Positions 39,301 to 64,000 of a stretch of 64,000 bases of DNA are shown here, piece after piece; position 1 is the stretch's first letter; each line of letters starts with the position of its first letter. The notes under the pieces were generated by a model. That model saw nothing but the letters and a program-made list of their open reading frames with translations, had not been told where the DNA came from and did no database searches. The stretch covers positions 7,959,950 to 8,023,949 of the forward strand of contig NC_134026.1 in assembly GCF_964204645.1 (NCBI RefSeq), given 5' to 3'. Made by a program: the position numbers and the translations under genes. This stretch comes from Tubulanus polymorphus (taxonomy: Eukaryota; Animalia; Nemertea).

Positions 39301-41113
39301 ATTGGAGATCAAAATTCCAAATACACCGACGTAATACTAGGAAAAAGTTCGATTTAGAAATTGATAGATTCAAAACCCTAAAACGAAAATTTTCGGTCAA
39401 ATTGTCTGCACCAATCCTCTGGAATAAGCTACAAAATTCGCTTAAAGAAAAACCTAGTATTTATTCGTTTCGTCTTAGCTATAAACAAGAAAATTAACTT
39501 TAATAAATTATTTGACGCCTGCGAAAAAATGTAGAATTTCTGGTATAAGCTAATGTGGAATTGCAAATTTGAAATCGAAGTTTTAAGAAATTTCGGGAAT
39601 TATGAGATTTGGCGATTGGGTAGATGATACAGTCTTCGACTGGTCTAATAAAAAAAAAAATTGTCAACTTCTGACTTCGATTCACTTTTGCCTCTAAGCT
39701 GGTCTGCAACTTCATTGCCTCCATGGTTGAAGAAAGAGCTCTTCTGATGTCTGCTTCATCATGACTTGAGCATATATCGTGTAGCCAGCCAGCCCGGTCC
39801 TGGGGCCCGGTCTGGCTGTCACTTGATATCCTAGACTTGAGTCTGAGTAGAAGTAGACATTGTCATATAATTAACTTATTCATGTTATTCTGTATGAATT
39901 ACCCGTGTGTCTTGTATTTTCTTATTCTAAAATTTGTAAATGCATTGATTTTTGGAATTTTATCCCGGAATTTCAATGTAATAAGGATCAATAAAGTATT
40001 GAATTTAATTGTCACCTTATACACATGCCATCAGTGGACGCGGAGCCGTATATGACAGCTATGCTATTATAAATTGCTAATCTCATGAAACCTGCATACG
40101 TCTAATATCGAACATACTTTCTAAAACATTTGAATATTGAAATTATATGTTTACACGTTTTTATATAGACCGCTTGTAGCCGCCGATGAAATTCACGCCG
40201 GCCCAACTCAGATCGTAGATAGCTTCGTCATTCCACTAGCATCCCCATGTCAGGGTCTGACTTTTATATCAGACTTCCAAATCGTGTATACATCCGCCAT
40301 TTAACCGAATAATCCGATTTACTTATCATTTCTATTTATCCCTGCCGCCCCTGATATAATCATACATCCTTTACTATTACAATACGTCTTCTCATGATAT
40401 TCAATGCGATATAACATTTCAACGTTCAAATAGAGGTCATTACATAATCCCAGGGAGCCATTCTACATCTTTATCAATAATATTTTGCCAAATAGCTTGT
40501 ATGTGTACACATAAACCTGTGACGTTTTGCACATCGATTTACGGTTGTCGTTTGTAAAATGACGCTGAATGGTTATCATTGTTTAGGTTTCATAATGGTA
40601 ACGTTTTATAAGGCGTCAAAAAACTGAAGTTTTCCTTATAAAGCTATTTTGTGAGTTGTTTAGATGCTCCAATTATTCCTAATTCATCTATTTCTGTGTG
40701 GTGTGTTATTATGAACATGTGATCGAGTGTGTGTGAGGGGTGTGTGTGTTTCCGCGTGCATGCGTACGTCTGAGTGTGGTTTGAATGTAAGGGGCCTTGC
40801 ATGCATAAGCATTCTTTTGCTTCTCCAAGACCCTGCCCTTTTATTACAACATGAATATCACCATGGACGTATAGACTAGACCTTAACACTAGTCTATGCG
40901 CCCATGATGACACTTATATATAACAGTACCCTTGTATTCTTTTATAAAACTTTGTATGTATAATCGTGTTGTAATTCGAGGGAAAATAAAAGTTATTATT
41001 ATGATAACAAAAGTTTCGACAAAACCTATAGAATTTAAACATATAAAGGCACCCGGTCATTTGTTTAAATCACGTATATTATATCCTAAACGGCCCCTGG
41101 GACCGCTGGGGCT
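36379..41113. repeat. ~70-bp inverted repeats bracketing the LINE (36379-36445 and 41048-41113); third direct copy at 35560-35610
   Basis: CAG.GTCCC...TTTAGGATATAA.ATA.G.GATTTAA.CA.ATGACCGGG.GC in opposite orientations. Confidence 0.75.
36500..40005 (+). mobile_element. Decayed CR1-group (Crack/Daphne/L2-like) non-LTR retrotransposon, ORF2 only
   Basis: APE endonuclease motifs (NIRS, GGGVAI, YRPP, GDFN, PTR, DNIF, SDH) and RT motifs (YRPISVLP, QFGFR, DLSKAFDTV, GVPQGSILG, FADDT) across several frames; AATAAA at ~39990; no ORF1 seen. Confidence 0.93.
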
Positions 41114-44783: not shown

Positions 44784-46516
44784 TCACTCATTTCGCAAAA
44801 ACCACCAAACACCGGAAAAAACCATAACCAAGTGTATCATATTCATTTCGTAGTTGGCAGCACTGTTACAGTAGTCGAAATCAGTGCAGCAATGTACTTT
44901 GCTCAATTGATATTTCTCTCCTTCGCCGAGGATGTTCACTTCTTCACCGCAATTCTTGAAACAGCCTCGAAAAAACACTACTTCTTTGCCCGCATCTTCG
45001 TAAGTCAATTTCTTAAATATATGAGATACATGAATAAGTTTAAAATCGACTTCACCGGGGATGATTATTGTGAAATAAACTCATCACTTACCCCGCACTT
45101 ATAATCATCGCCAATACACTGTACTGTGAGCATTTTGTACATGTAATATTCGATTTGCCCGATAAGTGACGCTTTTAAATGTGGAGGATATATACTGCGT
45201 GCGCATTCTTTCGTGAAATACGGCTCTCTTCCGTCCTCTTCTTCGTCGTTAAATTGAAAACCCCCTGAATCAAATAGCAACGCATTTTTTACAATGTGAC
45301 GATATAAGCACTCATCCGTCTCTGGAAACATGTAGGCTAATACAGGGTGCAGGTGTCGGCTTGAAACCTGCACCACTCAGCCTGTACCACTCCTTTTCTG
45401 TACCACTGGGCCGGTGCTGCTTGCAGGCTGGGATGAACTCCAAAGCTATATTTCGAACTATCCACCACGTGTCAATAGCTCTATTTTAGTGCTTATTTCG
45501 TAAAAGCCATACATTATATAGTATATAACATATCAATACATTTTTAGATATGGTACATGATAATGGTCACCTGGGCAAAATGGCACAAAATGGCGCCTAG
45601 ACACTGGAAACTTCTTTATTAAAGACGTTTCCAGTTTCTAGGTGCCATTTTGTGGCGGTCCCTCGAAGTCCCCATTGTTGCGATATTTTGCGCTCATTTT
45701 TAAAACATAAGTTTTGATTGAATCTCATATAGCTCTGCAGTCCCTTGCTTGATTAACTTCATTTGTAAACCAATTGAAAGGAAATGAAATACAGATTTTG
45801 CCGGTGATTCTTGGATTTTTTGGATGCAACAATTAATAGCAGTGACGATGTGAAACCAAGGACCGCATATTTTAACCGCGCGTCAAAAAAGTGCGGTGCG
45901 CAGTGGGAGACCCCTTTGGCGCGTAATCTTAAACTCTATCGATTACAGATCAGTCCTCAGGAAATATTTAAAAAATTTCAACGCAGGCCAAAACTGCAAA
46001 TATCTTTCTTTAACCTCAGCAAAAATGGGAAATATAGCTTTAATGACCAGTTAAATATTTCAAAATCTATAAAATTCGCAATTTTTTGACGCGCGGTTGA
46101 AATATGCGGTCCTTGGTTTCACACCGTCACTGACTGCTCTTAATTGTTGCGTTCAAATGATCCAATAATCACCGGCAAATGTCTTCATTTCATTTCCTTT
46201 AAAATGGCGTACCAATAAAGTTAATCAAGCAAGGGACTGCAGAGCTATTTGATATGCAATCAAAACTTACGTTTTAAAAATGAGCACAATTATCGCAACA
46301 ATGGGGACCTCGAGGGACCGCCACAGAATGGCGCCTAGAAACTGGAAACTTCTTCATCACGAAAGTTACAGAATTTTGAATGTGACAAAAATGAAATGAA
46401 CTTACTGTCCGTAACGAATTTTTTCAATGTTTCGTACTATCCCTTGTATTTTTGCTTGTTTTTTTCATCAACCACGTATTCGCAAGATGCACAGGTCCTA
46501 TTTAGAGCAATTGTGG
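44784..46516 (-). pseudogene. Ly6/uPAR (three-finger) GPI-anchored protein, copy 2, one in-frame stop
   Basis: Exons 46406-46516 (ALNRTCASCEY, TAG at 46437-46439), possibly ~45369-45479, 45092-45264 (...QCIGDDYKCG), and 44784-45011 (KLTY...FFRGCFKNC...HCCTDFDYCN + GPI tail); intron 45012-45091 is gtaagt...ag. Confidence 0.7.
45627..46352. mobile_element. Foldback/MITE with ~270-bp inverted arms
   Basis: 45627-45895 is the diverged reverse complement of 46077-46352. Confidence 0.88.
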
Positions 46517-48398: not shown

Positions 48399-50344
48399 GT
48401 AACAAAAAAAGCGGAAGTAACGTCAGTGTTAGGGAACTCGTGGGAATTCGAGTAAGGTGATATGATGTGAAAAGGGCTGTTTTGAATTTCGTTTTATTAA
48501 GAAAAAAAGATCGTCGAAGCGTATGAAACCGGGCGTTTATGATATCTTGTCAAAAAAGTCAGAGCGTGACCTACATATTCCTCTCCGGGTCAGATTGTGT
48601 AACAAAACTGACAAAATATTGAAGCTGCATCTTTATCATTGTCCACAGACATCAATTAAATTGGTCGAGTAGTTTTCGCTCAGTAACAAAATTAGTCCAG
48701 CATTCAAAATTCGAGAACTCTAGTGGGAATCAATAACCTACATGACTAACCAGTAATATGGCAGTAACAGTCATTGAGAATTACAGAAACTTTTACTGAA
48801 CTCGCTAATATATCATCGACAAAATGTGTGTTACCTAACTTTTTTGTTCTGTGTATATTTGTTCTTCAAAAGTGTACGTTGTACCTATACTCTGTTTGTA
48901 ATTCAAGTATATAAACCAGTTTTTGTGCTCCTTTGGAATTTCTTGAATTTTACTGTGGAGCAATAAATTTAACGTAATATTTAAATTCTAATTGTATAAT
49001 AGATTTTGATGTCGTCTGCAATGTTATTCCCGTGACAAGGAAAACTCGACCTATTTACAGTGAAAAAACCCGAACTTTTCACAGGGAACTTCAAAAACAA
49101 CCCTAAACAATTGAATGGGTGCGGGGTCACGTGTTTGAAATTGACCAATCAGAAACTTCCATGGTGACATATTCTAGAAAAAAAACAAATCTTTTACGAA
49201 AATATCAAACACGAGATATTCAAAACTATTCAAAAAAGGTTGCAGCCCGTCGTGCAATAGGCAGACGGTTATTTGGAAAGAAAGTATTTGTTTAGGATTT
49301 ATGATAGACAATTGTTTGGGGGGACTAAAACATGAGCTAACAAAACTTACCCTGAACAAAGAACAGAACCAGTAAAAACATAATCTGTAACTGATCCATC
49401 CTGTTGTAGAGTCGTTAGTCACCTGTAGAACTGCCGTCGTCTGTCTCCAGTAAAACTGCTCGTCTGTCTCCTGTAGAACTGTCGTGTCACCAGTAGATCT
49501 GCTATCCTATATCACCAGTAGAATTACTGTCTTCTGTCCACGATAGAACTGGATACCTGTCACCTGACGCCTTTAAATTCCTGTTTGAAATATAGCGACA
49601 ACCAATGAATTGAAACAGAACTGTGATGTGCAGTTTTACTCGTAAGCGCTGAATACAGGCATTTATTTCATTGAGAAATAAACATTACAAACTCATACAA
49701 ATGAATTACATTATATTTGATTCAAATTCAAGCCTGAATTCAAAATCAAACCGAAATCGTGTGATTACTGTAAGGGTGATCTCATGCTCCTAGTTCATGT
49801 CAAAAGATCAGTACTTGCGATGAGAGAATTAAGTTGCTTAGGAGTAACAAGCCATGTTTAAACTGCCTTGGCAAAAACTTATTTATCGTCTTGTCATTGT
49901 ACGTAGGTTCTGAATTGAAGGTGAGCCAGGTAGCCGAAATGTTTTACTTGTTGACAATTCCGACGACTTCAAAAACAAATTCTGTTAAGACAGAATTCAG
50001 AATTAATTCCTTAGATAAATAAACTAGATTGGAAATTAAGCCATTGATGGTCCATAAGATTTTAACACCACTTAAGAACAAACTCTCACAGCGTTTTCTG
50101 AATTCATTTGCAAGATTTATAGTTAACTGTGAATAATATTAAATTCGCCAAAATCTACCACTATTTACTCAGATTTTGTGAAAGTTTACATTGTGAAATG
50201 TAAATGCAACTACATGTGATAACCATTCGACTTACATCAAAATCAGTTGGAAGCTTTTAGCAGAAGTAATTGGGAAAGTAGGGTTTCAGATCAGAGGTCG
50301 AAGGTCGAACACTCATCACCACAAGTAATTTTTTTTCCTTATAA

Positions 50345-50551
50345 ATGGAAGAGAATAAGACAGAACAAATTGATGTTAATGAAAATCAATATCATTGTCC
50401 ATATTGTAAAAAATACATTGATAAATCAAATAAACCTTACATGGAAAACGTTAGAAATTATATTGATTCACTAGAAATAAAAGATACAATTGAAATTTTA
50501 GAAATATTACGCAGTAAAATTGTGACACACATAAACAGTGAGTGCGCGTAA
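50345..50551 (+). CDS. Small hypothetical protein (single CPYC motif)
   Basis: ORF starts at TAAATG with a duplicated promoter block. Confidence 0.6.
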   Translation: MEENKTEQIDVNENQYHCPYCKKYIDKSNKPYMENVRNYIDSLEIKDTIEILEILRSKIVTHINSECA

Positions 50552-50690
50552 CAACAGCTGCGCGTGTGTTAACTGTACCCGGATAAATAGATGCTGTGAG
50601 GCTTGGGTGAGAACGGTTAATAGCGTGCTTGTTATATACAAGGGGAAGTAATCCCCACTCATCACCACAAATAATTTTTTTTCCTTATAA

Positions 50691-51017
50691 ATGGGAGATA
50701 GAAAAGCATTCTTAGCAACAATAAATAACAGAATAAAACCAGCAAAAAAACAATTTGAAATAAAAAAGTTAGTTGATGTTACAAAAGAAATTGAACATAA
50801 AATATTGAAATTAGAAAAGATAAAAACTAAATATGGAGAGAAAGTATCAGCTAATTTAAGCTACTGTAATGTTAGTACATCGCGAGAATTTAAAGTATTT
50901 TTACCTGATAAATGGGTTTCATTGAGTACAGAGGAATTAAAAGATTTAGAAGGATTTAAAATAATATATCATGGAAAAAATGAAGACGGCCATCATGATT
51001 TAGAAATTGTTGATTAA
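50691..51017 (+). CDS. Small Polinton-type protein, possibly OB-fold/ssDNA-binding
   Basis: KLEKIKTKYGEKV...FKVFLPDKW...IIYHG pattern recalled from invertebrate Polintons; TAAATG start; fold assignment is inference. Confidence 0.6.
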   Translation: MGDRKAFLATINNRIKPAKKQFEIKKLVDVTKEIEHKILKLEKIKTKYGEKVSANLSYCNVSTSREFKVFLPDKWVSLSTEELKDLEGFKIIYHGKNEDGHHDLEIVD

Positions 51018-51178
51018 ATTTAAAAAAATAAATTAATAAAAATAATGAATATCTAGAATCCGAAATGACTTATCTGGACAATTTAATTGCTCCGCATAGA
51101 TAGACAAAAGTAGTGAGATATTCAATTAATATTCAATTAATTAAAAAAAATTATTTTTTTTGCTTTTTTTCTAAAATT

Positions 51179-51547
51179 TTAATCCATTTTTTTTATTATC
51201 AATTTTGGAATTTCAGAAGTATTTTCATTTTTGATAGCAGTTGTTTCAGAATTATTAATATCATGAATTTTATTTGATTTCTTATACCAATTACACCCAA
51301 TCAAAATGAATACAATTACAAATCCAAATGTAAAATATAGACATTTATCAAATATTCTATTATCAGAAGGAGTAGAAATAACAACATTTTCACCATTTTT
51401 ATTAACATTTTTATTACTTATTTTTTCTTTTACAGCTTTTTTATATTCTTGTGATTTAATTCCTAATTGCCGAGACCATTCAATTTGTTTCTGAGTTCTC
51501 GGTTTTTTCTTCACAGTTAATTCCTTCACTTCTTTCACCTCGCTCAT
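51179..51547 (-). CDS. Basic protein with one transmembrane helix
   Basis: KKKPRTQKQIEW N-terminus; LYFTFGFVIVFILIGC; TAAATG start. Confidence 0.7.
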   Translation of the reverse strand: MSEVKEVKELTVKKKPRTQKQIEWSRQLGIKSQEYKKAVKEKISNKNVNKNGENVVISTPSDNRIFDKCLYFTFGFVIVFILIGCNWYKKSNKIHDINNSETTAIKNENTSEIPKLIIKKMD

Positions 51548-52086
51548 TTATTATAGAAATATTTTTACTTTCAATATTTGAAAATGTTATAACCCCAGTT
51601 GATAATAATGTCATAAATCCACCTAATTGAAACGATAAATATCCAATCCATTTATTTAATTCAGTCATAACTAAATAATCATTTTTTAAATCGGAATATA
51701 ATCTATTTTCATCTTCAATTGGTAGTATATAATTACATAATTTACTATAACCTTTTACTACATTTTCTGATATCGCGTCATTAATTCTAGCTGTTCTCGC
51801 GGCTTCATGAATCTTAAATAATCTAATAATTTCAAATGATTTCATTGTATCTAATTCATTATAAGTTAAATTTTTATCGACAAAATTTTTTACATTTTCC
51901 AGATGCTATTAATATTTCTAATTGATGTTTGCAATAAAGATAATATTCATAATTATTATTTGTTGTAACATTATTTAAAGCACCATCATCTGGAATTAAT
52001 TTGTTTTCTGTTATTCCTAAATCATCTAAAGTTTTTTCAATTGGAACATCACCATTTTTAGATTTTATTTTCTTTTCACCTACCAT
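51480..52086 (-). pseudogene. Hypothetical protein with C-terminal hydrophobic segment, +1 frameshift
   Basis: ORFs 51874-52086 and 51480-51845 join (CKNFVDKNLTYNELDTMK) if one A is removed from the A6 run near 51890. Confidence 0.7.
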
Positions 52087-52117
52087 TTATATAACAAAAA
52101 AATTAGTTGTGATGTTG

Positions 52118-52368
52118 CAACTAGAATTTAACTAGAATGTAACTAGAATTCAACTAGATTAACAAGCTAGTTGAAATATTGTTGTTTTTGTTTATTTCTA
52201 GTTAATTCTAGTTGATTTTTGTTTCAACTACTAACAACTAGAATTCAACTAGAATGTAACTAGAATTAAACTAGATTAACAAGCTAGTTAAAATATTGTT
52301 AAATCTAGTTGATTTTTGTTCCAACTACCAATAACTAGAATTCAACTAGATTAACAAACTAATTGAAT
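52118..52368. repeat. AACTAGAATT-based direct/inverted repeat array inside the Maverick
   Basis: Two ~120-bp higher-order copies built from CAACTAGAAT units and their inverse. Confidence 0.85.
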
Positions 52369-52977
52369 TTAAATAAATTCATATTTAAATGGGTGTTGTA
52401 ATCTAAATAGTAATTTTGATCTTTTAATATTTTTCAACTTATCCATATATTCATTATGTAAATCATGTGGAATAATATCATTTTCCTCAAGCGCATTTTT
52501 CATCGATTTTCTATCTTTATTGTAGAATAAAACTAGAAATCTAATGTTTTCTCTAAAGTCTTTAACAATTGAATTATATTTTTGATTTAAAACCCAAGTT
52601 GTTATCCCAAAATGTCTCCCATAGAAAGCTAGATAACATAACTCACTTTCTCTAACTTTTGAATCATGTAAATTTGCGCAATCATCTATAATAAATAATG
52701 TATTTGATCCTTTATAAATATCAATTGCTATTTTAATACAATTATTTGAATTTTCTTTTACTGTTTTAGGATCTAATATAATAAATTTATTATTTCTAGT
52801 AATATTTCTATCATAAGTTTGATTAAATTCATACGTTGGGCAAAATAATACTATATTATCAAAATAGTTTTCATAAACAGTTTCTAATAAATTTAATATA
52901 AAATAAGTTTTTCCACAATTTGTTACGCCAGAAATTAACATATTATGAGGCTCAAATATAAATAATTCCTTATTCAT
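52369..52977 (-). CDS. A32/FtsK-like genome packaging ATPase
   Basis: Walker A GVTNCGKT, Walker B LFIIDD, GRH motif, then VLNQ. Confidence 0.93.
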   Translation of the reverse strand: MNKELFIFEPHNMLISGVTNCGKTYFILNLLETVYENYFDNIVLFCPTYEFNQTYDRNITRNNKFIILDPKTVKENSNNCIKIAIDIYKGSNTLFIIDDCANLHDSKVRESELCYLAFYGRHFGITTWVLNQKYNSIVKDFRENIRFLVLFYNKDRKSMKNALEENDIIPHDLHNEYMDKLKNIKRSKLLFRLQHPFKYEFI

Positions 52978-54106
52978 TTATATATTTTTAATTTTACTTG
53001 ATAATATCCATTCATTGAATTTATCTGGCCATCCTACCCATTTTACTAAAGAATATTTTTTTCTTTTAATAGTTTTTGTTTTTAATACTTTTTCAATTTT
53101 ATATTCTTGTTCTAGATTTTCAGTAGTTAAACTTAATTCTTCTTCGTAAAAGTAGCCATCAACTTCTTCACCATCTAAATCTTCTAATTTATAGACATAT
53201 GGTTTTGTTGTTATTACCTTTTTTATTTTATATATTACTCTAGTAAAATTTCGATCGTATCCTTTATCAAATATCTTTTTATACTTAGAAATTCTAACAT
53301 TTTGACCAACTTTAAATTTAGGTTCACCAAAATCATCTACAAGAAATACTCCATATAAATTATTCCAAACAATTTCAGCATTTTCAGGTTTTCTAGCATC
53401 AATAGGTTTCATTCCAATAGAAGAATGATAAGAATTATTATATCCTTCTATCAATTTTGGTAAAACATCAATCCATTTAAAAGTATTATTTGCTGTAAAA
53501 TATTTCCACATTCTTGTTCTTAATGTTCTATTAAATCGTTCAACAACTGCTGCTTTTTTATCTGATTTTGTTGAAAAATATTTAATATTATGATTATCTA
53601 AGAGTTCATGAACAAGTGAATTATCAAACTCTTTTCCATCATCAAATTGTATTTTTTTCTGGTTTTAGTTTATCATCCGAAAGAAATTTTCTTAAAACAT
53701 TTGATGTTTGTACAGCATCTTTTCTATAAAGTGGGAAGCTCCATACATAACGACTAAAAATATCAATTATATTCAATAACCACCAATAATCATCATTATC
53801 TTTCTTAACATTTTTCATATCAATTAAATCTCCTTGCCACTGTTGATCTACATAACTTACCATAGTTTTACGAGTTTTATATTTTCTAACAATTTTTTTA
53901 TGTGTTGTATATGTTGGTTGTTCTAACATAAATTCATTTATATCTTCATATTTAACTAAATTTTGTGGGATTATCTTATCTAATTTATCTTGTTTTACTT
54001 GACGCCATATATTTTTGGTAGAAGAATAAGCAACCGAACTCTCAGGGTTGTAATATAAATTTCTTAAATATTGGTCCGTAGTATTAGGAGTTTTTTTACC
54101 TCCCAT
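52978..54106 (-). pseudogene. Retroviral-like (rve) integrase with C-terminal chromodomain, +1 frameshift
   Basis: WQGDLIDM, IDIFSRY, (QF)DDGKEF, KAAVVERFNRTLR, YKIEKVL...LVKWVGWPDKFNEW; frames join after removing one base from the T7 run at 53652-53658. Confidence 0.93.
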
Positions 54107-54136
54107 TTATATATCGTTAATTTTAAATTTATATTT

Positions 54137-55399
54137 CTAATATTGAATACTATCTAACTGTGAATTTACAATATTTAATTGTGCGTCAGATATAATATAA
54201 ATGTGCATTTTGAAATTTTTGTCTCCTTTTTTCTTTTTCATGAATAATTGTATTCCATCTTTAGTGTTCTGTAATTTCTTCCCAGAACCATGTAATGAAT
54301 TATCCTCTGTTGTTCTAAAATCTAACCATAATGCATATTTATTACCGGTATAATAATCAATTTGATTAATATTACAATTTTCAAATGATTTTACTTTTTC
54401 ATTCATAAAATGTTTTCTAATTTCTGGCCATTGATCAATCATTCTCATTCCTTGACAAAATATTTTATTTGCTATTCCTTCGATAGTTATTTCAACTTTT
54501 GTTATTTTAGGATTATAATAATTATCTACCTTTATTGCACCATTAGAATATGTTGCAATGGTAAAAAATATTAATATACCTTCTTGGTATTAACTATTAA
54601 TAGTTCTTCTTGGGAAGTTAATATTCTCATTAATTATTTCATCATTTGCATTAATAGTTACAGTTTTAAATTTATCAATATAATCATATAATAATGAAAA
54701 TCCTTGATTGTATTGAGTTTGAATTGTGCTAGCAATATTTTCATTAGTTACTGTGTTATATTCTAAACATATATTCGATAATTTATAACCCATATCTTTA
54801 ACAACGCTAGATAATACAATTTCATTTACGGGAGCAAATGTTATCTCAAATATAATATCTTCTTGAATTGCATATTTATATAAAGGTGAATTGTTATTTA
54901 TCAATTCAAAGTCTAATGGAATTTTATATTTGCTTCCATTAATCTTTTTAATCAAATTATCTGTGGCACGAGTTACTATTGCGTCATTAGCTCCTGATCT
55001 TAATTTATTATGGTTTTCCGATTGAATACCCTGAAATATCATATTATTTCTATTTTCTTTAGTTAACCATAAATCTTTATAATGCATAAATAAATTATAA
55101 TCATCTAATGAGAAAACTGTTTCTGGACCAATCTTTATTGTTAACTTTTTAATCAAATATCTTCCAACATTATCAACAACATAATTGTTATCATGACCAG
55201 TTACTTTTATATCGGCTGATAAATAAATACTATTTGGAACATAAAAAGTATTTTGTGTTAATCTAGGAATTCTAACATATAAAGTTTCATCGGGATTAAT
55301 ATTTGAAGGGTTATGAGTAATTATATGATGTGATCTTTCTGCTTTAATAGCATTAAATATTCTAGAAATCTTAGAAGGACTTATATAACTCCCACTCAT
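54137..55399 (-). pseudogene. Major capsid protein (double jelly-roll), in-frame 15-bp insertion with stop
   Basis: HIITHNPSNINPDETLYVRIPRL, YKLSNICLEY, NFPRRTI..GILIFF, YYNPKITKVEITIEG, YALWLDFR..DNSLHGSG, YIISDAQLNI; both ORFs are in one frame. Confidence 0.85.
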
Positions 55400-55439
55400 T
55401 TATTTAACAAAAAACTTAATTATTTATTTTTGATCATGG

Positions 55440-56878
55440 TTACTTGATATTTTTTGATATCATGTTTACTAAACCAAAGATAATAGTACTTACAACTGTA
55501 ATTAAAAATAGAATAATATGTTCAGCGGCAAAGTTAAGAATATTCCCAGCAGATTTCAATATAAAACCAACAATTGATGCAATAACTCCTGGCAATACTG
55601 CAGCAGATTTTTTAGATAGTTCCCATAAATATTTTGCTAATTTCTTTAAACCATCCTTAACTTTATCTTGTATAGAATTATTATCATTCGGGGGTTTATC
55701 CGGTTTATTGGGAGTAGGAGTAGATTTCAAAGCATTTGATATTGCTAAACCAATTGTTGTAGTAACATAGTTACAGCTGCTAGAATTGAAAGAATTGTTA
55801 TTCCTTCTAATTTAAATAATAACTTTATTCTATCTTTCAGTGATATTTCAGAATTTGGTTTAATCAACAAATCTTTAAAAATAACTTTTAATCTATTTAT
55901 ATTATAATCATATGATTTTAATAATAATTTAATTTCTTCTTTTTGTACTTCTAAATTATCTTTTAAATTATTAATTTCTTTTTCTAAACGTAATTCTTTT
56001 TGTCTATATTCTATTTCATCAATTACTTGATGATCTAAATCAGACTTTAATTGTTCTATTTCTTTATTTTTATCAGTTAATTCTTTTACCAAATACATAA
56101 TTTTTTGATCTCTTATACTTTTATTATGTGCAATTTTATCAGATGCAAGTCTTATACTAATAATTTCTCTAATTGCTTTATCAGAAAATATATCTAAATC
56201 TTCTAATTCTTGATCTGTTGCATCAAGTAATCCATTCGGTAAAAGTTTTTCAATTGGAACTTTATTTGATTTAAGTTTACTAGTTTTGGAAGTTATATTC
56301 TGTTCAGATGTTGTTTCTGTTTCTGATTTCTTTTTGATTATTTCAAATAATTCATTAATTCTTTGTTTAAATACGTCTATATTATCATCTATTTCTTTTT
56401 GTGTAACATCAGTTATTTCATTACTATTACTTATTATTTTAATTCTATCTGGTTTTAATTTTTCTAAAGTTGATTCTGATAACATTTTAGTTTTATTATT
56501 TTTATAAGTGATATCAATATAATAATCACCTTTCAAACGATAATAACATTTACCATTATCTAAAAATTTTAATTGATCTGCTAAAAGTCCAACGTCTTCA
56601 TCATTTATGTTAAGTTTAGATTTTTCAATTAAATCTTCTAATTAAGGTATTTTGTTTAAATTATCTATATCTTGTTTTACTAAATCTGGGTCTAAATTTT
56701 CAGGATTTAATTGTGATTCTGCATTTTTAATATAATCAAGCATATTCAAATTATTATTATATTCTGGCTCATTACCATCATTAAAACTTGTTTCATCAAA
56801 ATCAGGTGGTTGTTCATCAGTTATACCAGGTTCATCAAAAGGATCCATTCCAATATCTTCTCCACCTTCTACATCCAT
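55440..56878 (-). pseudogene. Long acidic/coiled-coil protein with C-terminal transmembrane/amphipathic helices (one stop, one frameshift)
   Basis: ORFs 56642-56878 and 55745-56536 are in frame across a TAA; frameshift at ~55765 joins to ...LPGVIASIVGFIL...IILFLITVVSTIIFGLV. Confidence 0.75.
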
Positions 56879-56893
56879 TTATATAAAAAAAAA

Positions 56894-58335
56894 TTAAAAT
56901 TTAAAATATAATATTCCTCCGATTACAATTCCTATACAGGTTATAGCTAATTTAGTATTTTCATGGGATTTATTGTCATTATCAGTTTTAATTATATCAT
57001 GTTGAATAACACCGTGTGGGTGCCATACGGCACCATTATCAGTTTTAATATCACCATGTGGGTGCCGTACGGCACCATTTTCTGTAGTATTGTAATCTTT
57101 TATTTTGGAATCATTATCCAATTTAATATTCTTAGTTTTAGTTTCTGTTGATTGAATATGTTTTTTATTTTTTTTACCTTCCATTAATTTTGGAGCAGTG
57201 ATAATCTTTTTATTTATATCATTTAACCCAAATGAATTATTTATTGTAGCAGTTTTAATTAGATTATTATAACCAATTATGTTTCCCATCTTTAATACTA
57301 AATCATTAGAAATAATTAATAGATTAGGGCCTATACAATAATTTAATCTAATATGTGATTTATCTAAATAATTTTGATATCTTATAATGTTTTCTGGAAT
57401 CGATCTATTTTTATCATTATGTATGGAATCTTCAAATAATACTTTGAATTGTTTCTGTGTATCAAATGATGTATTCAAATTTCCAATTATCGGTGATCTT
57501 GTTTCAACTTGCGCACCTAAAATACATATCAAATAAGTTCTAATAGATTGATTTATTCTTTGTATACCTGATTTTGTAAAACCTTCATTATTTTCTAAAA
57601 TTAAATAAACCCAACCATTATTGTTTTCTTGTTTTAAATTATCATAAAATTTCGGTAATTTATTGAAATTTAATGTTTCTAAATCCTTTGTTTCTATTTT
57701 ACCATAACCTAATTTATTATTATAGATATTATAAAAGCTATTAGATGGTATGGGAAGTGCACAATATTCTGCAATCTTTTTAGGGCAAGGAAGTGATCTT
57801 ATTGTTCCAATTTTTGTTCTAAAATCAGAATTATTTATATCTATATTAAATTCATTACAAATTTTATAAAACTTTGATGAATTAATATTATATCTAATTC
57901 TTTAAAATATCTTGATCCTGGTAAAGCGCACTCTAATTCATTTAATATTATTCTGATTTGAAAGTATGTATGAAATCTAAATAAACTTTGAATTAATTTA
58001 TATTTAGAATTATTCAAATGATCATTCCAACTAATTCCACAACCTGTTGTTGCACAATAAACAGCAAAATTTAATTGGTTCTGCCAATACTTCATATTAG
58101 ATTTTAATAACCATTGTTTTTCATCTTTCAATTTTTTAAAATTAATTAAATATACATGAAATATATTTTCCATCTTTGCATTAAAATTATTAGTTTCAGT
58201 AACATAAATTTCTAAATTAGTTAATGAATCTAAAACTTCATTTCTATATGTAATATCTTTATTAAAATCTATTGCTGGAATATTATATTTAATTGATTTA
58301 TTATATTGGAAAGCTTTTGGAAAACTATCTGCCAT
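56894..58335 (-). pseudogene. Conserved Polinton hypothetical protein with C-terminal TM anchor (frameshift ~57890)
   Basis: WQNQLNFAVYCATTGCGIS, FHTYFQIRIIL; the alternative frame is open through GFTKSGIQRINQSIRTYLICILGAQ to the TM tail. Confidence 0.75.
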
Positions 58336-58351
58336 TTATATAATTAAAAAA

Positions 58352-58786
58352 TTAATAATTTATTAATTCTTTTAATAATTTATCTTGTTCTTCAACTGTT
58401 ATATGACCATTTAAACTTATGATATAATCTAGTGTGTTCTTTAATTTATTAATTTCTTTTATATTAGTTTTAATTTTTTCTTTATTACTTTTTATATTTA
58501 ATTTTGAACTTATACCAGTTAAAACACTTGAACTTAATCCTAATACGCCAATTGATATAGCCAAAGGTGTTAATGGACTGAATATTGCTAGAAATGTTAT
58601 TACAGAACTAATTGTAACCGAACCACTAATAATCAAATAATATATAATTTTACTTTTTAAATATTTTTTCTTTTTTATCTTTAAGTCACTTTCAAATTCT
58701 AATATTTGTTTTTCTAAATATATTTTTAATTTAGTTTTATTTATATCATGAGGAATGATATCAATACTATCAACTTTATCTTCCAT
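58352..58786 (-). CDS. Two-TM membrane protein
   Basis: Two adjacent hydrophobic helices flanked by basic/coiled segments; TAAATG start. Confidence 0.75.
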   Translation of the reverse strand: MEDKVDSIDIIPHDINKTKLKIYLEKQILEFESDLKIKKKKYLKSKIIYYLIISGSVTISSVITFLAIFSPLTPLAISIGVLGLSSSVLTGISSKLNIKSNKEKIKTNIKEINKLKNTLDYIISLNGHITVEEQDKLLKELINY

Positions 58787-58806
58787 TTATTTAGCAAAAA
58801 AAATTA

Positions 58807-59228
58807 CTAATTAGTAAACTTATAAGCAACAAATATAACAATAACTGTTCCACCTAAAATCCAAATTATTTCATATTTCTTCTGTTCATTACTTGGGATA
58901 TAATAATCTGATAATTTAGGTTTGTATAGATGTAATTTTTCTTTATTGGTTACCGCGTTATATAAACCCATTGCATCATCAACTGATTGAAAATCTCTAT
59001 GTGAAATCTTCTGATCATATAATTCCTTGTTAATATAATCCATATAGTTTGTCTCTTTTCTCTATATTCTTCCGCAGCTTTATTATATTTCTCTAACGCT
59101 AAGTTATGTCTTCTTTGTTCTCCTAATGAACTATTTTTATCAATATGTTTAAATAAATAACCACCACCAGTAAATGCCAAAGCGTTAACAATTGCTGATC
59201 CTATAATAGTTATAATTGCAGAAGCCAT
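58807..59228 (-). pseudogene. Membrane protein with N- and C-terminal hydrophobic helices (frameshift ~59050)
   Basis: MASAIITIIGSAIVNALAFTGGGYLF...RHNLALEKY joins MDYINKEL...IIWILGGTVIVIFVAY. Confidence 0.72.
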
Positions 59229-59252
59229 TTATTTAGTAAAAAAATTATGCAT

Positions 59253-59474
59253 TTATATGGGAGGAATATATTTTTGTTTTTCTAAATAATCAATAGTTAA
59301 ATTAGATAAAGTAATTGCTAATGTTAAATTTAAAATATCATTTATATCAAATCTATCAACATTAACACTTCCCATTTTGAATACTTTTTTTAATACCATT
59401 GAATAACCAACAGTTCCAACAGATAGTAAGGCGCCATTATATAATCCAGTTATTATCCACTTATTATCACTCAT
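59253..59474 (-). CDS. Small hydrophobic protein
   Basis: 73 aa with two hydrophobic stretches, DYLEKQKYIP end; TAAATG start. Confidence 0.72.
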   Translation of the reverse strand: MSDNKWIITGLYNGALLSVGTVGYSMVLKKVFKMGSVNVDRFDINDILNLTLAITLSNLTIDYLEKQKYIPPI

Positions 59475-59831
59475 TTATTTATCAAAAAAATTACTATCAT
59501 CAAAATATTTAGTTAACTTATTTATGATTAATTCAACATTTATTTCATTACTAGTTTCATTTGTATATATTTCAATTATTATTTTTTTAATATCATCGAT
59601 GATAAAATCTTCATCTAATTCATAAAATCTTAAAGATTCTCTAATTAAATTAGTAATCTTTTCTACATTTAAAGTTTCTTTATCTATTGTTGTTTCATAC
59701 TCAAATGTTATTTCATTAGAAAATGCAATATTTTTAATATGTGTAATTACATCATTAACGTTAAATTTCATTTCTTTCTCACGTTTAAAATCATACCCAA
59801 AACATATACTCGGTCCAACAGTTATATTCAT
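59475..59831 (-). CDS. Hypothetical acidic protein
   Basis: 118-aa ORF with T-run/TAAATG start; its stop abuts the next ATG. Confidence 0.65.
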   Translation of the reverse strand: MNITVGPSICFGYDFKREKEMKFNVNDVITHIKNIAFSNEITFEYETTIDKETLNVEKITNLIRESLRFYELDEDFIIDDIKKIIIEIYTNETSNEINVELIINKLTKYFDDSNFFDK

Positions 59832-59847
59832 TTATATAATGAAAAAA

Positions 59848-60603
59848 TTACTCTTTACATCTTATAACTAATTCATAAATTACAGGAAAGTTATTCAAAT
59901 CAATTAAATAACCATTATGATTTCTTATTTCTAATTTAAAATTATTGAAATGTGGAATACAAGGTTTGAAATCACATTCAGTTAAATTATAATTTATTTG
60001 AGTTCCAAATTGTTTAACATTTTTTAATGGTAAAATATTTAATAAACCAGAATTACAAATTGTATCTTTAGTTGCTTCAAATGTTTTTGTTGGGTCAATT
60101 AAATTACAATAAATATAGAAATGTGTGTAAGGTATTATATTTGAGCTACCTTCTACGTTTCCAGTAACAATACGCGGTTTAATTCCTAACATTTTAGCTA
60201 TTGGTTTGTTTACCATAAATTTATTTTGTTCATTGGCTAACTTTATTTTAATTTCATCAGAACTATCACTTTTTATAAATCTAATTGAAAATTTATCTTC
60301 ACTTTCAAGTTTTAGTCGTGCTTTCCGATTAATTTCTTGGGCTAATGTTTCTAAATTATATAATCCTGGTTTTAAAAATAGATGAAACCATTTATTTTTA
60401 TTTCCAATATGAATTAAAAAGTCTCTATGTTCAAAAGTTTTAGCCGTTATATTATAAAATGAGTTACATAAACTTATATTAACTAATTTTAAATCAACAC
60501 AATTCTTAAATTCCCTATCTAATTGTATTAGTAAATTATGTGATTTATAATTTGTAAGTTTTCTAGAATCAACAAATATTCTGTATTCTTTTAATTCTAC
60601 CAT
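59848..60603 (-). CDS. Minor capsid protein (penton, single jelly-roll)
   Basis: LKPGLYNLETLAQEIN, YIYCNLID, LLNILP, FKLEIRNHNGYLIDLNNFPVIYELVIR are typical Polinton mCP motifs. Confidence 0.82.
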   Translation of the reverse strand: MVELKEYRIFVDSRKLTNYKSHNLLIQLDREFKNCVDLKLVNISLCNSFYNITAKTFEHRDFLIHIGNKNKWFHLFLKPGLYNLETLAQEINRKARLKLESEDKFSIRFIKSDSSDEIKIKLANEQNKFMVNKPIAKMLGIKPRIVTGNVEGSSNIIPYTHFYIYCNLIDPTKTFEATKDTICNSGLLNILPLKNVKQFGTQINYNLTECDFKPCIPHFNNFKLEIRNHNGYLIDLNNFPVIYELVIRCKE

Positions 60604-60671
60604 TATTTATAACATAAAAAAATTACCGCTCATCACTAAAAATTAATTTTAATAAAATTTTTCCTAAATAA

Positions 60672-61947
60672 ATGGATGAGAAGATAGCATGCGAAATTTG
60701 TGGTGAACTTCTAAGAAAAAGTAATATGGCTCGACATATGAAAAAACATGATGAAAATTATAAACCCCCTAAACTAAACTGTCCAAAATGTAATAAATTA
60801 TTCTCAAGAAATTATGTTAAAAAACATTCAGAGAAGTGTAGAATTAATGGCGCAACGGCTAATGTTGTTAGTAATGAAAGTAATAGTAATTCTGCCGAAG
60901 TTGAACCTGAAGTTATTTGGAAAAGACCTTTCTTATTCTATGATAAGGATGATATAAAAGATCATTTCTGTGAGCCTTGTCGAATGAAATTTAGTCCTGA
61001 CAAATATAGAAGATTGGGAGAATCATCAATTTCGTAAAGAACATATAGATAAAATTTCTAATAAATTTGAAACTGAATTTAATGAAAGAAAAAATAATTT
61101 ATTAGAAAAAATAAAATATGAGAAAACGTTACCAGATAATAAAGAAACAGTTGAAAAGTTAGAAAAACAATATAATGAATTAACAAGAAAAACATATTAT
61201 TGTAAATATTGTAAATTGATTATTACAACAAGTAATTCAAATCTACATAATAGAACAATAAAACATAAAGAAAACGTAAGAAAATACCAAGAGCTTAATG
61301 AAGATCTATTACCAATAAATTATAAACAAAAATGCCCACAATGTATTTATGCGACCTTACGACAAGAAGGTACTGTGTTATTTTGTGTTGATTGTGGATG
61401 GCAAAAGAATTTATGGGGTGAAGAAAAAACTAGACATTTTCTCATAGATCCAAAATTAAATTATCTAGATGAAATTTTTAAAATATTTTCTATAGAAGAT
61501 CATACACCAGAATATATGCAATGGCTTGAAAAAATGAAAATAATAGAAAATAAAAATGGTGAAATAACTAAAAAAGATATTATAAATACAATTATTCCGT
61601 CAACATTTAACACAAAACAAAAGAAAATGTATTTATATTTATTATTTAACGATTATTATGAAAAACCTAAATTAACAGAAGAAGATATGGAAAATATAAA
61701 AAAAATATTCAAACAAATATTAATGTATCATTTGGAAAATAGAATAACAGATTCAATAAATTATGAATTCTTTTTAAATAAGATTGTAAATTATTTAAAC
61801 CTAGATATTATAATTCCATTTGACGAATTAACAAACAAAAAGAAACAAAGAGAGCGAGATGAAATGTGGAACAAGATAGAACTTTATTTAAATGAAAAAA
61901 AAATGGAATGGAAGAAGAACCTAAACAAATTATACAAGAACAATTAA
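60672..61947 (+). pseudogene. C2H2 zinc-finger array fused to a VLTF3 (poxvirus A2-like late transcription factor)-like domain, frameshift ~61000
   Basis: CEIC..HMKKH, CPKC..HSEKC, CEPC..HQFRKEH, CKYC..HNRTIKH; then CPQC...FCVDCG zinc ribbon and INYEFFLNKIVNYL...KKQRERDEMWNKI. Confidence 0.7.
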
Positions 61948-61999
61948 ATGAAAATGAAGAAGCCAATAGTGATTTCGAGTTTGATGATATAGATCCATT

Positions 62000-64000
62000 T
62001 TAATAACCATAAGGTAATGTTTTTATACCATCATCTGAAATATGCCTTTTATCATCAAATGGATTCAAACTAGTTTTTTCAGCTTCATTAATGTACATCT
62101 CGTGATTTTCTGATCTTAAACAATTCATTTTATCTTTCATTACAATTGATTTATATAAACACTTTATATAATCTTGAAATTCTATATGTTTATCAACCAC
62201 ATGTTTTGTTATTCCTTTTAACTTTTTAGCTTCATGATCTTTTGTTCTGTAACTATACATTTTACTTCTTATCCCAACAAATTCAATCATTTCATCACCC
62301 CCTAATTCATCTTTAAACTTACTAGGAATCTTTTTATTATCATTGCTAAATAGTTCATGATCTTTGGGATAATTGCTAAAATCAAAATGATGTTTTAATG
62401 TTTTTAAGTCTTTTGTTATATCATTTGTCTTGATTTTTAGTATGTAGGCGTCGGTATTTTTTTGGATTAATGGGAACCCAGAATTGAATGTTCCATCATC
62501 TGTTGATAAATCATAAACATAGTCAGTTGGGTTATATATTTCAAATAAATCTTTAACTTCTTCTGTTAACTCATTTTCTACATGTCTTAAATTAAAGCAA
62601 TTTGGTTTAGATTTAATCAATCCAATATTCATATTAAATCCTAATGAACTGCATAATATATTCAATCCTGATATAGCAACTTTTCCTTTTTGAGCTAAAG
62701 ATATTGTTTTGCGATTTTTGAAACTTTTTGAACCATCTGCAGCATAGAATCCAATGAAGAACCATTTTCTTAAATTATTTTTTGCATTTAATACATAATC
62801 TGGAACTATCTTTTCTTTTGTTGAAGTATTACTTTTAACTATTGCATGAATATAGAATTCATCATTATATTTTATAGCAAACTCTTTAGGATTATTTACA
62901 AGTATTCTATAAACTGCTGTTGATTTCATAACATCCATGATTTTAAATGTTTTATTTGGATAAACTTCTTCACAGAATTTCTTTATTCTTTCTAATAATT
63001 TTAAGTCTTGATTGCATAAATACCAGCAATATTGAGTGCGATTAACATAATTATACACACCTGCTGAACCATCACCCATGAAAAATCCTTTGATAAAATA
63101 TTCTTTTTCTTCTAATGTTTCGGGTTCTACATTATAAATATTATCAATAATTTCATCAAATGAAATATGATTCATTCTTTGGAAAAATCTTTTATGCAAT
63201 AATTCATCTCCAATTTTTATATCAGTTGGTTTTATTTCATCACCATTTCGTTTAATTAAACTATGATCTTCTGTAACATCTACAAATGCTAATTTAGTTT
63301 TTAACTCTATAGATTTTCTTATTTGTTTTATGCCTAATAATATTCTTTAATTTTTTCCATCCATTTCTTGTCCAAACATCCATTAAATCATTTATTTGTA
63401 TTAATTCTTTTTCTCCATATGAAATATAACATTCATTTTGTTTTGGAATTATTTCTGAAATTCTTCTTATCAATATTTTATTATTACATTTTAATAATAT
63501 TGGGGTGTCAGCTGTTACAGAATCAAAATATAATATTTCAATATGCTTTTCCCCAAAAAGTGGTTGTAAAACATTATAATAAAAATCATACATTAATAAT
63601 TTTGATACTTCTAAAACAGTCGAACCAATAAATATAGGTTTATTAAATTTCATTGATGTTCTTTTTAATTTAACTGCTGTTAAATAATCTTCAAATCTTT
63701 TATTTCCTAAATGTCTAGGACTTGATTGTAGGTGTCTTAATCTTTCAGAATTATTTACTAATTCAATATCATTTCTATTTCTAATATTTTCGCATGTTTT
63801 ACCATAAAAACTATTATTCATTAATTTGAAGAAATCTTTTTCAAAATCTGTTTTTGATATGGTTCTCTGTTGAGTATTGAAATCTATATATTTTTCTAAC
63901 CACTTCGATTGATTAAATTCAATATATCTATGTACTTTCTTTAATTTCATTCCTTGTTTTAGATAAAATTTTAACATTCTATAATGAACAATATAATTGT
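62000..64000 (-). pseudogene. polB: Protein-primed family B DNA polymerase (C-terminal part), intein-containing; N-terminus beyond window
   Basis: FFKLMNNSFYGKTCENIRNR, KPIFIGSTVLEVSKLLMYDFYY, YFD|TD, KFKDE, FVGIRSKMY, KLKGI, KTSLNPFDDKR, TLPYGY. Confidence 0.95.
62456..63521 (-). mobile_element. Intein with LAGLIDADG homing endonuclease in PolB (355 aa after removing one extra base)
   Basis: Block A SVTADTPILL, block B VDVTEDHSL, LAGLIDADG motifs FIKGFFMGDGS and FFIGFYAADGS, block F YVYDLSTDDGTF, block G LIQKN followed by extein Thr. Confidence 0.93.

Follow-up and report, generated by a model that had tools for sequence, protein, structure and literature searches.

A decayed Polinton in the nemertean Tubulanus polymorphus carries late-promoter-like gene starts, and its family may be transcribed by a co-infecting large DNA virus

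The window analyzed here is a stretch of 64,000 nucleotides from the nemertean Tubulanus polymorphus (contig NC_134026.1), in which an integrated Polinton/Maverick element occupies positions 50262..64000. Its left end and ~13.7 kb are in view, and its right end lies beyond the window. GC content is 0.239 from position 50260 on, against 0.378 in the flank, which is animal DNA (laminin exons and a LINE). This step, along with genes for an A32 ATPase, an rve integrase and a capsid protein, bears out the AT-rich integrated element that an earlier, sequence-only reading had placed from 50260. Read depth, measured only across the flank and the initial 0.7 kb of element sequence, rises from ~8 to 500-1145, a half-filled bin fitting an element start near 50262 (read sample X5, a small share of the run, two records). 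The Polinton family is multi-copy in this animal and, given an element-to-flank depth ratio of 64-146, has spread widely in the germ line. The copy in the window is real but decayed: 7-8 of its 16 visible genes are broken, capsid, integrase and PolB among them, so no virus can be reactivated from this copy itself. Reactivation on infection, as the sequence-only reading had proposed while overlooking the decay, therefore fails for it. Homopolymer sequencing error was rejected as the chief source of the breaks, as runs of at least 6 lie near 2 of the 9 break regions (approximate ranges).

At the left end, a promoter unit made of a T8 tract and TAAATG (50310..50352, + strand) is duplicated at 50656-50698, the 43-nt repeat being 95% identical, and reads from sister copies jump from 50301/50308 to 50655. 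A zinc-finger-like ORF of 68 aa (50345..50551, +) forms an optional cassette here. The genes that follow, up to position 59831, all have TAAATG starts and, except for the first, lie on the - strand. They begin with conserved ORFs of 108 aa (50691..51017, +; 74% to the relative L001) and 122 aa (51179..51547, with a hydrophobic stretch), and a conserved gene in two pieces (51480..52086) that both match single ORFs of 206-218 aa in L001, L002 and L005. The A32-like packaging ATPase (52369..52977) is intact (PF04665 E 1e-12, over the cut-off; 81% to L001). The rve integrase with chromodomain (52978..54106; PF00665, PF00385) is broken into two frames and is a single ORF in L002 and L005; PF00665 matches the broken window piece at E 2e-5 and L001 at E 1.5e-10. 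The major capsid protein, of the double jelly-roll (DJR) type, is likewise broken, in two pieces (54137..55399; Capsid_N E 0.0019). It has 54 homologues, the full-length ones of ~415 aa, and one of these, P0001, has a score of 0.97 to Atlas clusters in which 10-24% of the members carry Capsid_N or DJR-like; a PDB sequence search with the capsid gave no match.

Further along are a conserved coiled-coil/membrane gene in three pieces (55440..56878), two matching single ORFs of 448-485 aa in L001, L015 and L019 and the first assigned by position, and a conserved ~440-aa gene in two pieces (56894..58335; also in L001, L019, L007 and L017). Then come an intact SLATT-like protein with two TM segments (58352..58786; SLATT_fungal E 0.004, below the cut-off, and E 0.0013 for the L001 orthologue), a conserved ~139-aa gene in two pieces (58807..59228), and two small ORFs of 73 and 118 aa (59253..59831), each with its own TAAATG. 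The gene at 59848..60603 (-) is probably a minor capsid protein (penton), from a weak match of a 7-sequence profile to PDB 8h2i P1v1 (E 0.026); its start context is TAAATA-ATG, and its L001 orthologue starts with TAAATG. On the + strand, 60672..61947 (TAAATG start) encodes a zinc-finger protein whose C-terminal region (about 61300-61944), with a zinc ribbon and helices, is VLTF3-like but divergent; its two frames, joined here by inference, are probably one gene broken near 61000. The last gene (62000..64000, -) is the C-terminal part of a family-B DNA polymerase with motifs B and C, interrupted by a broken LAGLIDADG intein (62456..63521, -). It is 52-53% identical to the intein-free PolB of L007, its exteins have no Pfam match, and its N-terminal region lies beyond the window. 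It is probably of the protein-primed Polinton type.

No introns are in view and relatives hold the same genes as single frames; no RNA polymerase family matched the window frames scanned (the longest 448 aa) or 29 ORFs of relatives. The sequence-only reading was correct on both points for the visible part. No cysteine protease of the group 1 Polinton kind was found among the visible frames, the right end being beyond the window. Searches for tRNAs in the window, for Rfam families in 49000-64000, and for relatives of the capsid or PolB end among viral contigs returned nothing.

The intein (63521-62456) splits YFD|TDAY in motif C, and has Ser/Asn ends and a LAGLIDADG_3 match (E 3e-7); a change of frame close to its 5′ part breaks it. 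Among its best 150 matches, 120 sit at YGD|S/C, and one (P0055, 74%) lies in a sister Polinton-type PolB. The relative L007, which bears TAAATG starts, has an empty site reading YMDTDAF. Judged by its sequence, the intein is real and allelic to the YGD|TDS inteins of large-virus PolBs. The giant-virus-like pol-c intein of the sequence-only reading thus stands; pol-c we take to be the label of the nucleocytovirus PolB motif-C intein class. Members of that class share the site, Ser...Asn/Thr junctions and LAGLIDADG, at 25-41% identity, and differ in their host protein, which in the window is a probable Polinton-type PolB with exteins unlike 149 of the best 150 matches. Read this way, the intein directly records an exchange of DNA between two classes of polymerase. 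A quick intein tree left the donor unplaced, on a long branch of 1.61; it kept 83 rows and left out 77 proteins, because their length fell outside the range or the two junctions could not both be located by pattern. An extein tree had too few columns, and looking up clusters yielded no taxa. For Polinton pPolBs, PMC11071308 goes no further than homing-endonuclease insertions, which 'suggest' intein invasions. The intein speaks for past DNA contact with large viruses and is no sign of helper dependence; its site is empty in the TAAATG-bearing L007.

The VLTF3-like gene is harder to place. Its frame has no Pfam match (PF04947), and an HMM built from 110 VLTF3 proteins scores -1.8 bits on it, with 60 of 999 shuffles scoring as high; hhalign pairs 177 columns at 29% identity with a probability of 5%. 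End-to-end alignment with VLTF3 proteins gives scores of 79-109, against ~19+/-8 for shuffles, for 8 of 9 references, and none of 1000 shuffles reaches them. The corresponding z is 8-10 for 8 of 9 references and 4.7 for L319, with no signal for L121 or L320. Four Cys and NxFxEI-like, YYE, R, F-x-x-L, D and W positions align collinearly with the zinc ribbon and helical domain of VLTF3. A fold search ranks VLTF3s first, which is circular, as the model was built on the VLTF3 alignment; a PDB fold search with a second model gave nothing at E<=0.001, and a single-sequence fold reached a pLDDT of 40, making its fold search meaningless. Searches found no close homologues of the frame, and no VLTF3 match in 19 related loci, which are short contigs. 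With moderate confidence, we regard the gene as divergent VLTF3-like: the factor named by the sequence-only reading is backed by the alignments and missed by Pfam and the HMM. Some coral polintoviruses have earlier been reported to encode VLTF3 (PMC11131425), although PMC5499653, cited there for a prior report, holds no VLTF passage. Mriyaviruses, which are regarded as nuclear, encode VLTF3 and no RNA polymerase (PMC11253617); G008, a complete virus record of 182 kb, likewise has VLTF3 and no Rpb2. VLTF3 is therefore no sign of a helper either.

The remaining signal is the sequence at the gene starts. TAAATG covers the first ATG of 14 of 25 frames of at least 65 aa, against 25 of 331 frames shorter than 40 aa (p 7e-9), and the other 11 long frames are mostly antisense frames or downstream pieces of broken genes. 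Among the gene 5′ ends in the window, 14/15 have TAAATG and 1/15 has TAAATA-ATG, the set having been curated by hand by a curator who already knew the motif. All 15 have A at -4 and T at -14; a T-tract lies at -14 to -10, and a run of at least five T ending between -16 and -5 precedes 12/15 starts, against 2/26 non-start TAAATG. No early or host-type entry gene is visible: integrase, ATPase, capsid and VLTF3-like gene belong to one promoter class. The PolB promoter and the right end, both beyond the window, could still include such an entry gene. Several simpler accounts of the motif were rejected. Stop-start coupling fails because TAA closes an upstream gene in only 2 of the 15 starts, and an AT-composition artefact because 25 viral loci with GC <0.30, each chosen for containing one motif match, give 52/415 starts. 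A TATA box directly abutting the ATG would place the transcription start within the gene. For initiation by host scanning, T is the base disfavoured at -3. The vaccinia/chordopoxvirus late promoter consists of a T-rich core, a 5-7 bp spacer and TAAAT followed by G or A, overlapping the ATG (PMC5294985, PMC4542343), and its transcripts carry poly(A) leaders made by slippage (PMC4542343). As far as sequence can tell, the layout at the window gene starts matches this published layout. The genome-wide TAAATG signal of the sequence-only reading can thus be upheld within the visible part; the start of PolB lies beyond the window.

The motif is shared by relatives. In 19 related loci (GC 0.20-0.44), it is present at 62/88 starts, against 102/2597 other ATGs, with T at -12 in 59/62 and A at -18 in 48/62 of the motif starts. 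Such conservation at fixed spacing, 10-19 bases upstream and across capsids of 50-77% identity, implies that a DNA or RNA element is under selection today. Two relatives, L016 and L018, keep the gene set but lack the motif. In the literature searched, no mention of a T-tract/TAAATG promoter in animal Polintons came up. In large viruses, TAAATG starts are found in a poxvirus stretch (6/12, against the late-promoter motif at 15/15 window starts), an irido-like record (14/32) and another RNA-polymerase-encoding large virus (7/17). By these sequence counts, TAAAT(G/A) is not diagnostic of poxviruses, non-pox large viruses having similar starts, so the 'pox' helper proposed by the sequence-only reading is not established. 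What the window promoters match is a class of motif and not one particular virus. T-runs followed by TAAATG number 0 against 2 in the control for a VLTF3-positive, Rpb2-negative complete record, and 81 against 42 for an RNA-polymerase-positive genome (one genome each). A modest enrichment of TAAATG (at 5-6 of 31-40 starts; p 1e-4 to 5e-3) is seen in four genome fragments (L291, L293, L310, L311); Rpb2 was absent from the three of them searched, the fragments being 12-32% complete.

In coding DNA, AATAAA occurs about as often as expected in the window (45 vs 45.2), in relatives (152 vs 158.8) and in the poxvirus stretch (52 vs 55.9), as does GTRAG (35 vs 34.7). For the two motif-less relatives, the AATAAA/GTRAG test gives small counts, 5 vs 9.8 and 0 vs 2.5. 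The RNA-polymerase-less group in these counts consists of L307 (a complete record without Rpb2) and two fragments. AGGT is depleted in window coding DNA (8 vs 18.6), which could be splice-donor avoidance, although AGGC and CAGG are likewise depleted in relatives. Depletion of TTTTTNT was discarded as a terminator signal, as A-runs are equally depleted. By AATAAA and GTRAG, the coding DNA shows no avoidance of nuclear processing signals, which weakly supports transcription by a helper.

The account we favour, at slightly better than even confidence, is that of a provirus family that stays silent and is transcribed not by the host but by a co-infecting nucleocytovirus with its own RNA polymerase. 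It is likely that the Polinton family needs a large DNA virus, itself unseen, for switching on; the data do not decide between a pox-like and an irido/Pimascovirales-like helper, and we leave its type as either. The sequence-only reading had counted three independent NCLDV-type signals. These are not three independent signs of a helper: VLTF3 and intein carry no such implication, and helper-driven transcription remains the best reading through the promoters and, weakly, the signal counts. The provirus would stay silent until infection, as mavirus does with CroV, after which late factors of the helper may turn on all element genes together. Initiation within TAAAT and polymerase slippage would produce a 5′ poly(A) leader replacing the T at -3. 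PolB would then replicate the genome, capsid, penton and ATPase would package it, and the integrase would reinsert it, while the VLTF3-like protein may assist or compete with the helper factor. The intein likely crossed from a large-virus PolB to the conserved motif-C site during a shared infection, arriving in a sub-lineage later than the promoter system. A strictly helper-dependent cycle must also account for germ-line spread to a depth ratio of 64-146.

An autonomous nuclear virus would use its own VLTF3-like protein, perhaps with factors from the unseen end, to direct host RNA polymerase II to the T-tract/TAAATG, an arrangement we consider rather unlikely. Its precedents are the VLTF3 genes without RNA polymerase in mriyaviruses and G008, and the VLTF3-like region matches both a G008 protein (z 4.7) and mesomimivirus-like proteins (z 8-10). 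The modest TAAATG enrichment in fragments without an Rpb2 match and the AGGT depletion also fit. However, the VLTF3-like gene itself lies behind a TAAATG promoter, so that no first step is visible, G008 lacks the motif, AATAAA and GTRAG are unavoided, and VLTF3 matches 0 of the 19 related loci (short contigs).

Decay of the window copy, high copy number and the motif-less L016 and L018, which show that the lineage can work without the motif, would suit a host-transcribed transposon whose motif is a relic of a helper-dependent ancestor or a start-codon context. Fixed-spacing conservation 10-19 bases upstream, implying current selection, and the poor host initiation context given by T at -3 make this distinctly improbable. 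Very improbable is a self-sufficient cytoplasmic element with an RNA polymerase gene of its own in the end beyond the window, like yeast linear virus-like elements (PMC6211774). The PolB type, the AT-richness and the lack of nuclear-signal avoidance fit, but no RNA polymerase family matched window frames or the 29 ORFs of relatives, and a Polinton length of 15-20 kb leaves little room past the missing PolB N-terminus.

If helper-driven transcription is correct, a large DNA virus with its own RNA polymerase should occur in this animal. The idea may be extended to a broader proposal, which we hold to be unlikely: that one widespread invertebrate Polinton lineage represents germ-line provirophages of an undescribed pox- or irido-type virus, silent until infection, then transcribed wholesale as late genes, with captured VLTF3 and SLATT used against the virus and antiviral protection inherited. 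If this were true, the promoter would sort animal Polintons by sequence into helper-dependent and autonomous ones, and forecast unseen large viruses of Polinton hosts. The late promoter bears on how animal Polintons are expressed, and on whether they are autonomous viruses, transposons or parasites of larger viruses. It is fixed, conserved across capsids 50-77% identical and absent from two relatives.

Among known systems, Maverick-Polintons (Polintoviricetes, 'adintoviruses'; 10.64898/2026.06.19.733378, PMC8502044, PMC11131425) share the PolB, rve integrase, A32 ATPase, DJR capsid, probable penton, SLATT-like gene and animal integration, and the element probably belongs to group 2. The element differs in its uniform large-virus late promoter at each visible gene, its motif-C intein of complete architecture and the lack of a visible protease; none of the three papers uses the word 'promoter' in its main text. 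Entomopoxvirus-associated PLVs (PMC11296320) are animal Polinton-like elements proposed to be poxvirus hyperparasites. These are ~12 kb, reside in occlusion bodies, have a tyrosine recombinase or no integrase, and contain a protease. The terms promoter, TAAAT, intein and VLTF have 0 occurrences in that paper, whereas the evidence from the window is cis-regulatory and read from sequence. Mavirus (10.1101/068312) is likewise an integrating capsid element with PolB and rve, with promoters that match the late class of its large virus, CroV; its silence, induction and protection have been demonstrated (10.1101/068312). Unlike mavirus, the element described here, known from its sequence alone, has an animal host, a Polinton-type rather than lavidavirus capsid, TAAATG instead of the CroV TCTA (PMC5294985) and its own VLTF3-like gene. 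Its capsid neighbours are Capsid_N/DJR clusters and not named virophage capsids, and no protease is visible. Membership of the Lavidaviridae is thus unlikely; by analogy, the element would only work like a virophage.

From around position 50262 to the end of the window, GC content drops from 0.378 to 0.239. The flank is animal DNA, with exons of a host laminin gene (159-35335, minus strand) and a decayed LINE (36892-39497, plus strand); a high-copy inverted-repeat element lies at 45609-46367. CpG observed/expected ratios are 0.60 in the element versus 0.98 in the flank. Sixteen genes lie in the AT-rich part. Their products include an A32 ATPase (PF04665, E 1e-12), a chromodomain-bearing rve integrase, a capsid protein with a probable penton, and a SLATT-like protein; a zinc-finger/VLTF3-like gene and the C-terminal portion of a family-B polymerase gene are also present. 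It is an integrated Polinton, as the sequence-only reading had proposed. Comparison with 19 metagenomic relatives (L001-L019) reveals seven genes, the integrase, capsid and polymerase among them, that lie in pieces here and are single frames in relatives; we infer an eighth broken gene. Long homopolymers occur near only two of the nine break regions, which suggests genuine decay for most of the breaks. The window copy is non-functional. In whole-genome reads with the same species label, depth at the element's end (90% likeness) is 64-146x the median flank depth; since a repeat at both ends would be counted double and the flanks may be under-mapped, we take this conservatively as tens of copies.

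A 43-nt promoter unit (50310-50352) is repeated at 50656-50698, on either side of a 68-aa ORF. In sister-copy reads this ORF is missing, with 33 and 35 reads bridging two joints; the promoter repeats may therefore delimit gene cassettes. Between two genes, the non-coding stretch 52110-52370 is filled with short repeats of AACTAGA type, both direct and inverted, and the closest relative (L001) has a gap at the matching position. L001 also carries a deoxynucleoside kinase behind TAAATG (10340-10981; PF01712, E 2e-31) that is absent from the visible part of the window element.

The genes of the element share a start signal. In the window, TAA precedes the first ATG in 14 of 25 frames of at least 65 aa versus 25 of 331 short frames (p 7e-9), and most of the longer frames that lack it are antisense or are downstream pieces of genes. 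Fifteen 5′ ends, curated once the motif had already been seen, comprise 14 TAAATG and one TAAATA-ATG, all with A at -4 and T at -14. A T5+ run ends 5-16 bases upstream of 12 of the 15 curated starts versus 2 of 26 non-start TAAATG sites. Among the relatives (GC 0.20-0.44), TAAATG is found at 62 of 88 starts versus 102 of 2597 other ATGs; L016 (0/3 starts), L018 (0/5) and L009 (0/2) lack it. In the vaccinia late promoter, a 5-7 bp spacer separates T residues from a TAAAT that precedes G or A (PMC5294985), and polymerase slippage on this element results in 5′ poly(A) (PMC4542343). The TAAATG signal is real, conserved and placed like a promoter. For the visible genes, this bears out the earlier claim of late-type starts, with promoter function putative.

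Coding DNA was also compared with synonymous-codon shuffles for signs of nuclear-signal avoidance. Avoidance of AATAAA is seen neither in the window (45 versus 45.2) nor in motif-bearing relatives (152 versus 158.8) or a pox stretch (52 versus 55.9), and GTRAG is likewise not avoided (35 versus 34.7). For the relatives without the motif, the counts are 5 versus 9.8 and 0 versus 2.5. GTRAG is avoided in a pooled group of viral loci (L307/L291/L310; 48 versus 74). AGGT is depleted in the Polinton family, as are AGGC and CAGG. Given the eleven patterns examined and the low value of several counts, this is weak support for non-nuclear expression. T5 and A5 runs are both depleted in the frames of the element and L001-L019 (z -3.5 to -8.6), exceeding the depletion in pox or irido stretches. 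AATAAA is below expectation in L016 and L018. These two have the same gene set and capsids at 42-47% but no TAAATG starts, and are possibly a host-transcribed sister lineage.

The motif is shared by several kinds of large DNA virus. In three viral-locus panels, the first two selected for one motif match each, TAAATG precedes 89 of 1152, 67 of 688 and 111 of 1215 long ORFs. The outliers are a poxvirus stretch with Pox_LP_H2 and NPH-II (L141, 6/12), an irido-like record with 2C_adapt, MSV199 and DUF3627 (L088, 8/13; L098, 6/19), L296 (7/17) and L160 (4/13); enrichment is weaker in L242, L291, L293, L310 and L311. The bin of L296 contains Rpb2 and has 81 T-run+TAAATG sites versus 42 in a reversed control. 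In the viral genome record G001, WWWTAAATG is enriched (210 versus 113) and the T-run form is not (13 versus 10), while neither is enriched in G008, which is complete and has VLTF3 and no Rpb2. These outliers and genomes point to a post-replicative promoter of RNA polymerase (RNAP)-encoding nucleocytoviruses, not of poxviruses alone. Upstream T4+ runs accompany 33 of 55 Polinton-family starts versus 5 of 17 irido-like TAAATG starts, which leans slightly towards pox. In the irido-like record, 14 of 32 long ORFs begin with ATAAATG, but just those 5 of its 17 TAAATG starts have a T-run; our literature search found no description of ATAAATG as an iridovirus late promoter.

The two remaining signs of a helper proposed from sequence were an intein and a VLTF3-like factor. 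The intein (63521-62456, minus strand) interrupts YFD|TDAY, matches LAGLIDADG_3 (E 3e-7) and, below threshold, Intein_splicing, and is broken in the window copy. A search against 1.84 billion representatives gave 852 matches. Among the best 150, 120 sit at YGD|S/C, 3 at Y[SN]D|S and 27 lack the N-junction, and only P0055 (74%) has Polinton-type exteins. Relatives of the matched polymerases occur in giant-virus bins. In the intein tree, the window intein and P0055 group on a long branch (support 100), for which the tree places no donor. Motif B of two polymerases with the same intein allele (P0068, P0073) looks T4-like, and phages may thus carry the allele too. The intein-free relative L007 (GC 44%) has TAAATG starts, yet its PolB site is empty; the intein therefore came in later and testifies to contact rather than to dependence.

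The VLTF3-like gene was missed by Pfam and by a narrow 110-sequence HMM. Alignment with hhalign gave 177 collinear columns at 29% identity and 5% probability, a score equalled by 1 of 201 shuffles and by one unrelated element protein. End-to-end pairwise scores were 79-109 versus ~19±8 for shuffled sequences, with 0 of 1000 shuffles reaching them for 8 of 9 references, seven of which are close kin, and with boundaries set once the alignment had been seen; the result holds with the zinc ribbon fixed. Among viral loci, L319 matches the region (z 4.7), and pairwise alignment found no match in L121 or L320. A fold search favours VLTF3s, with cowpox near the top, but its model was itself built on a VLTF3 alignment. 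We call the gene divergent VLTF3-like with moderate confidence. As mriyaviruses have VLTF3 without RNAP (PMC11253617), its presence does not point to a helper.

On balance, we favour a silent provirus family activated by late machinery that a large DNA virus supplies on co-infection, by analogy with mavirus, a provirophage switched on by its giant-virus helper CroV (10.1101/068312). The Polinton provirus would at first be silent; a large DNA virus with its own RNAP would then co-infect, and its late machinery would turn the provirus genes on. The strongest point for a helper is the single late-type promoter of every visible gene. An autonomous element that uses host Pol II through its own factor is a less probable, still serious alternative: a candidate factor is present in the VLTF3-like gene, but AATAAA is not avoided, and because this gene shares the late-type promoter too, there is no visible entry step for the host polymerase. 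We regard a relic or translation signal as unlikely. The window copy is decayed; the signal is conserved in relatives, and at just 2 of 15 window starts is its TAA also the stop codon of the gene before. Least probable is an RNAP encoded in the element's end beyond the window. Overall, the earlier observations largely hold and their interpretation does in part: a helper from the RNAP-encoding nucleocytoviruses is retained as the favoured reading, a poxvirus alone is not, as the motif also marks the irido-like record and L296.

In the main texts of the openly accessible literature, we found no animal Polinton reported to have TAAATG promoters or an intein in motif C. Intein invasions have been inferred from endonuclease domains (PMC11071308), and the available text of PMC10748475 describes HNH and VSR domains, without the word 'intein'. 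The comparison also spans PMC8502044, PMC11788076, PMC5499653, 10.64898/2026.10.13.758929, 10.1101/2024.03.23.586382 and 10.64898/2026.06.19.733378. VLTF3 is already known in some coral Polintons (PMC11131425) and is hence not new for Polintons. Poxvirus hyperparasitism has been proposed for insect PLVs (PMC11296320), where a term search of the available text finds no mention of promoter, intein or VLTF. The starts of the window Polinton share with the vaccinia late promoter the T residues and TAAAT with G or A after it, and its proposed cycle is likened to the activation of mavirus by a large virus.
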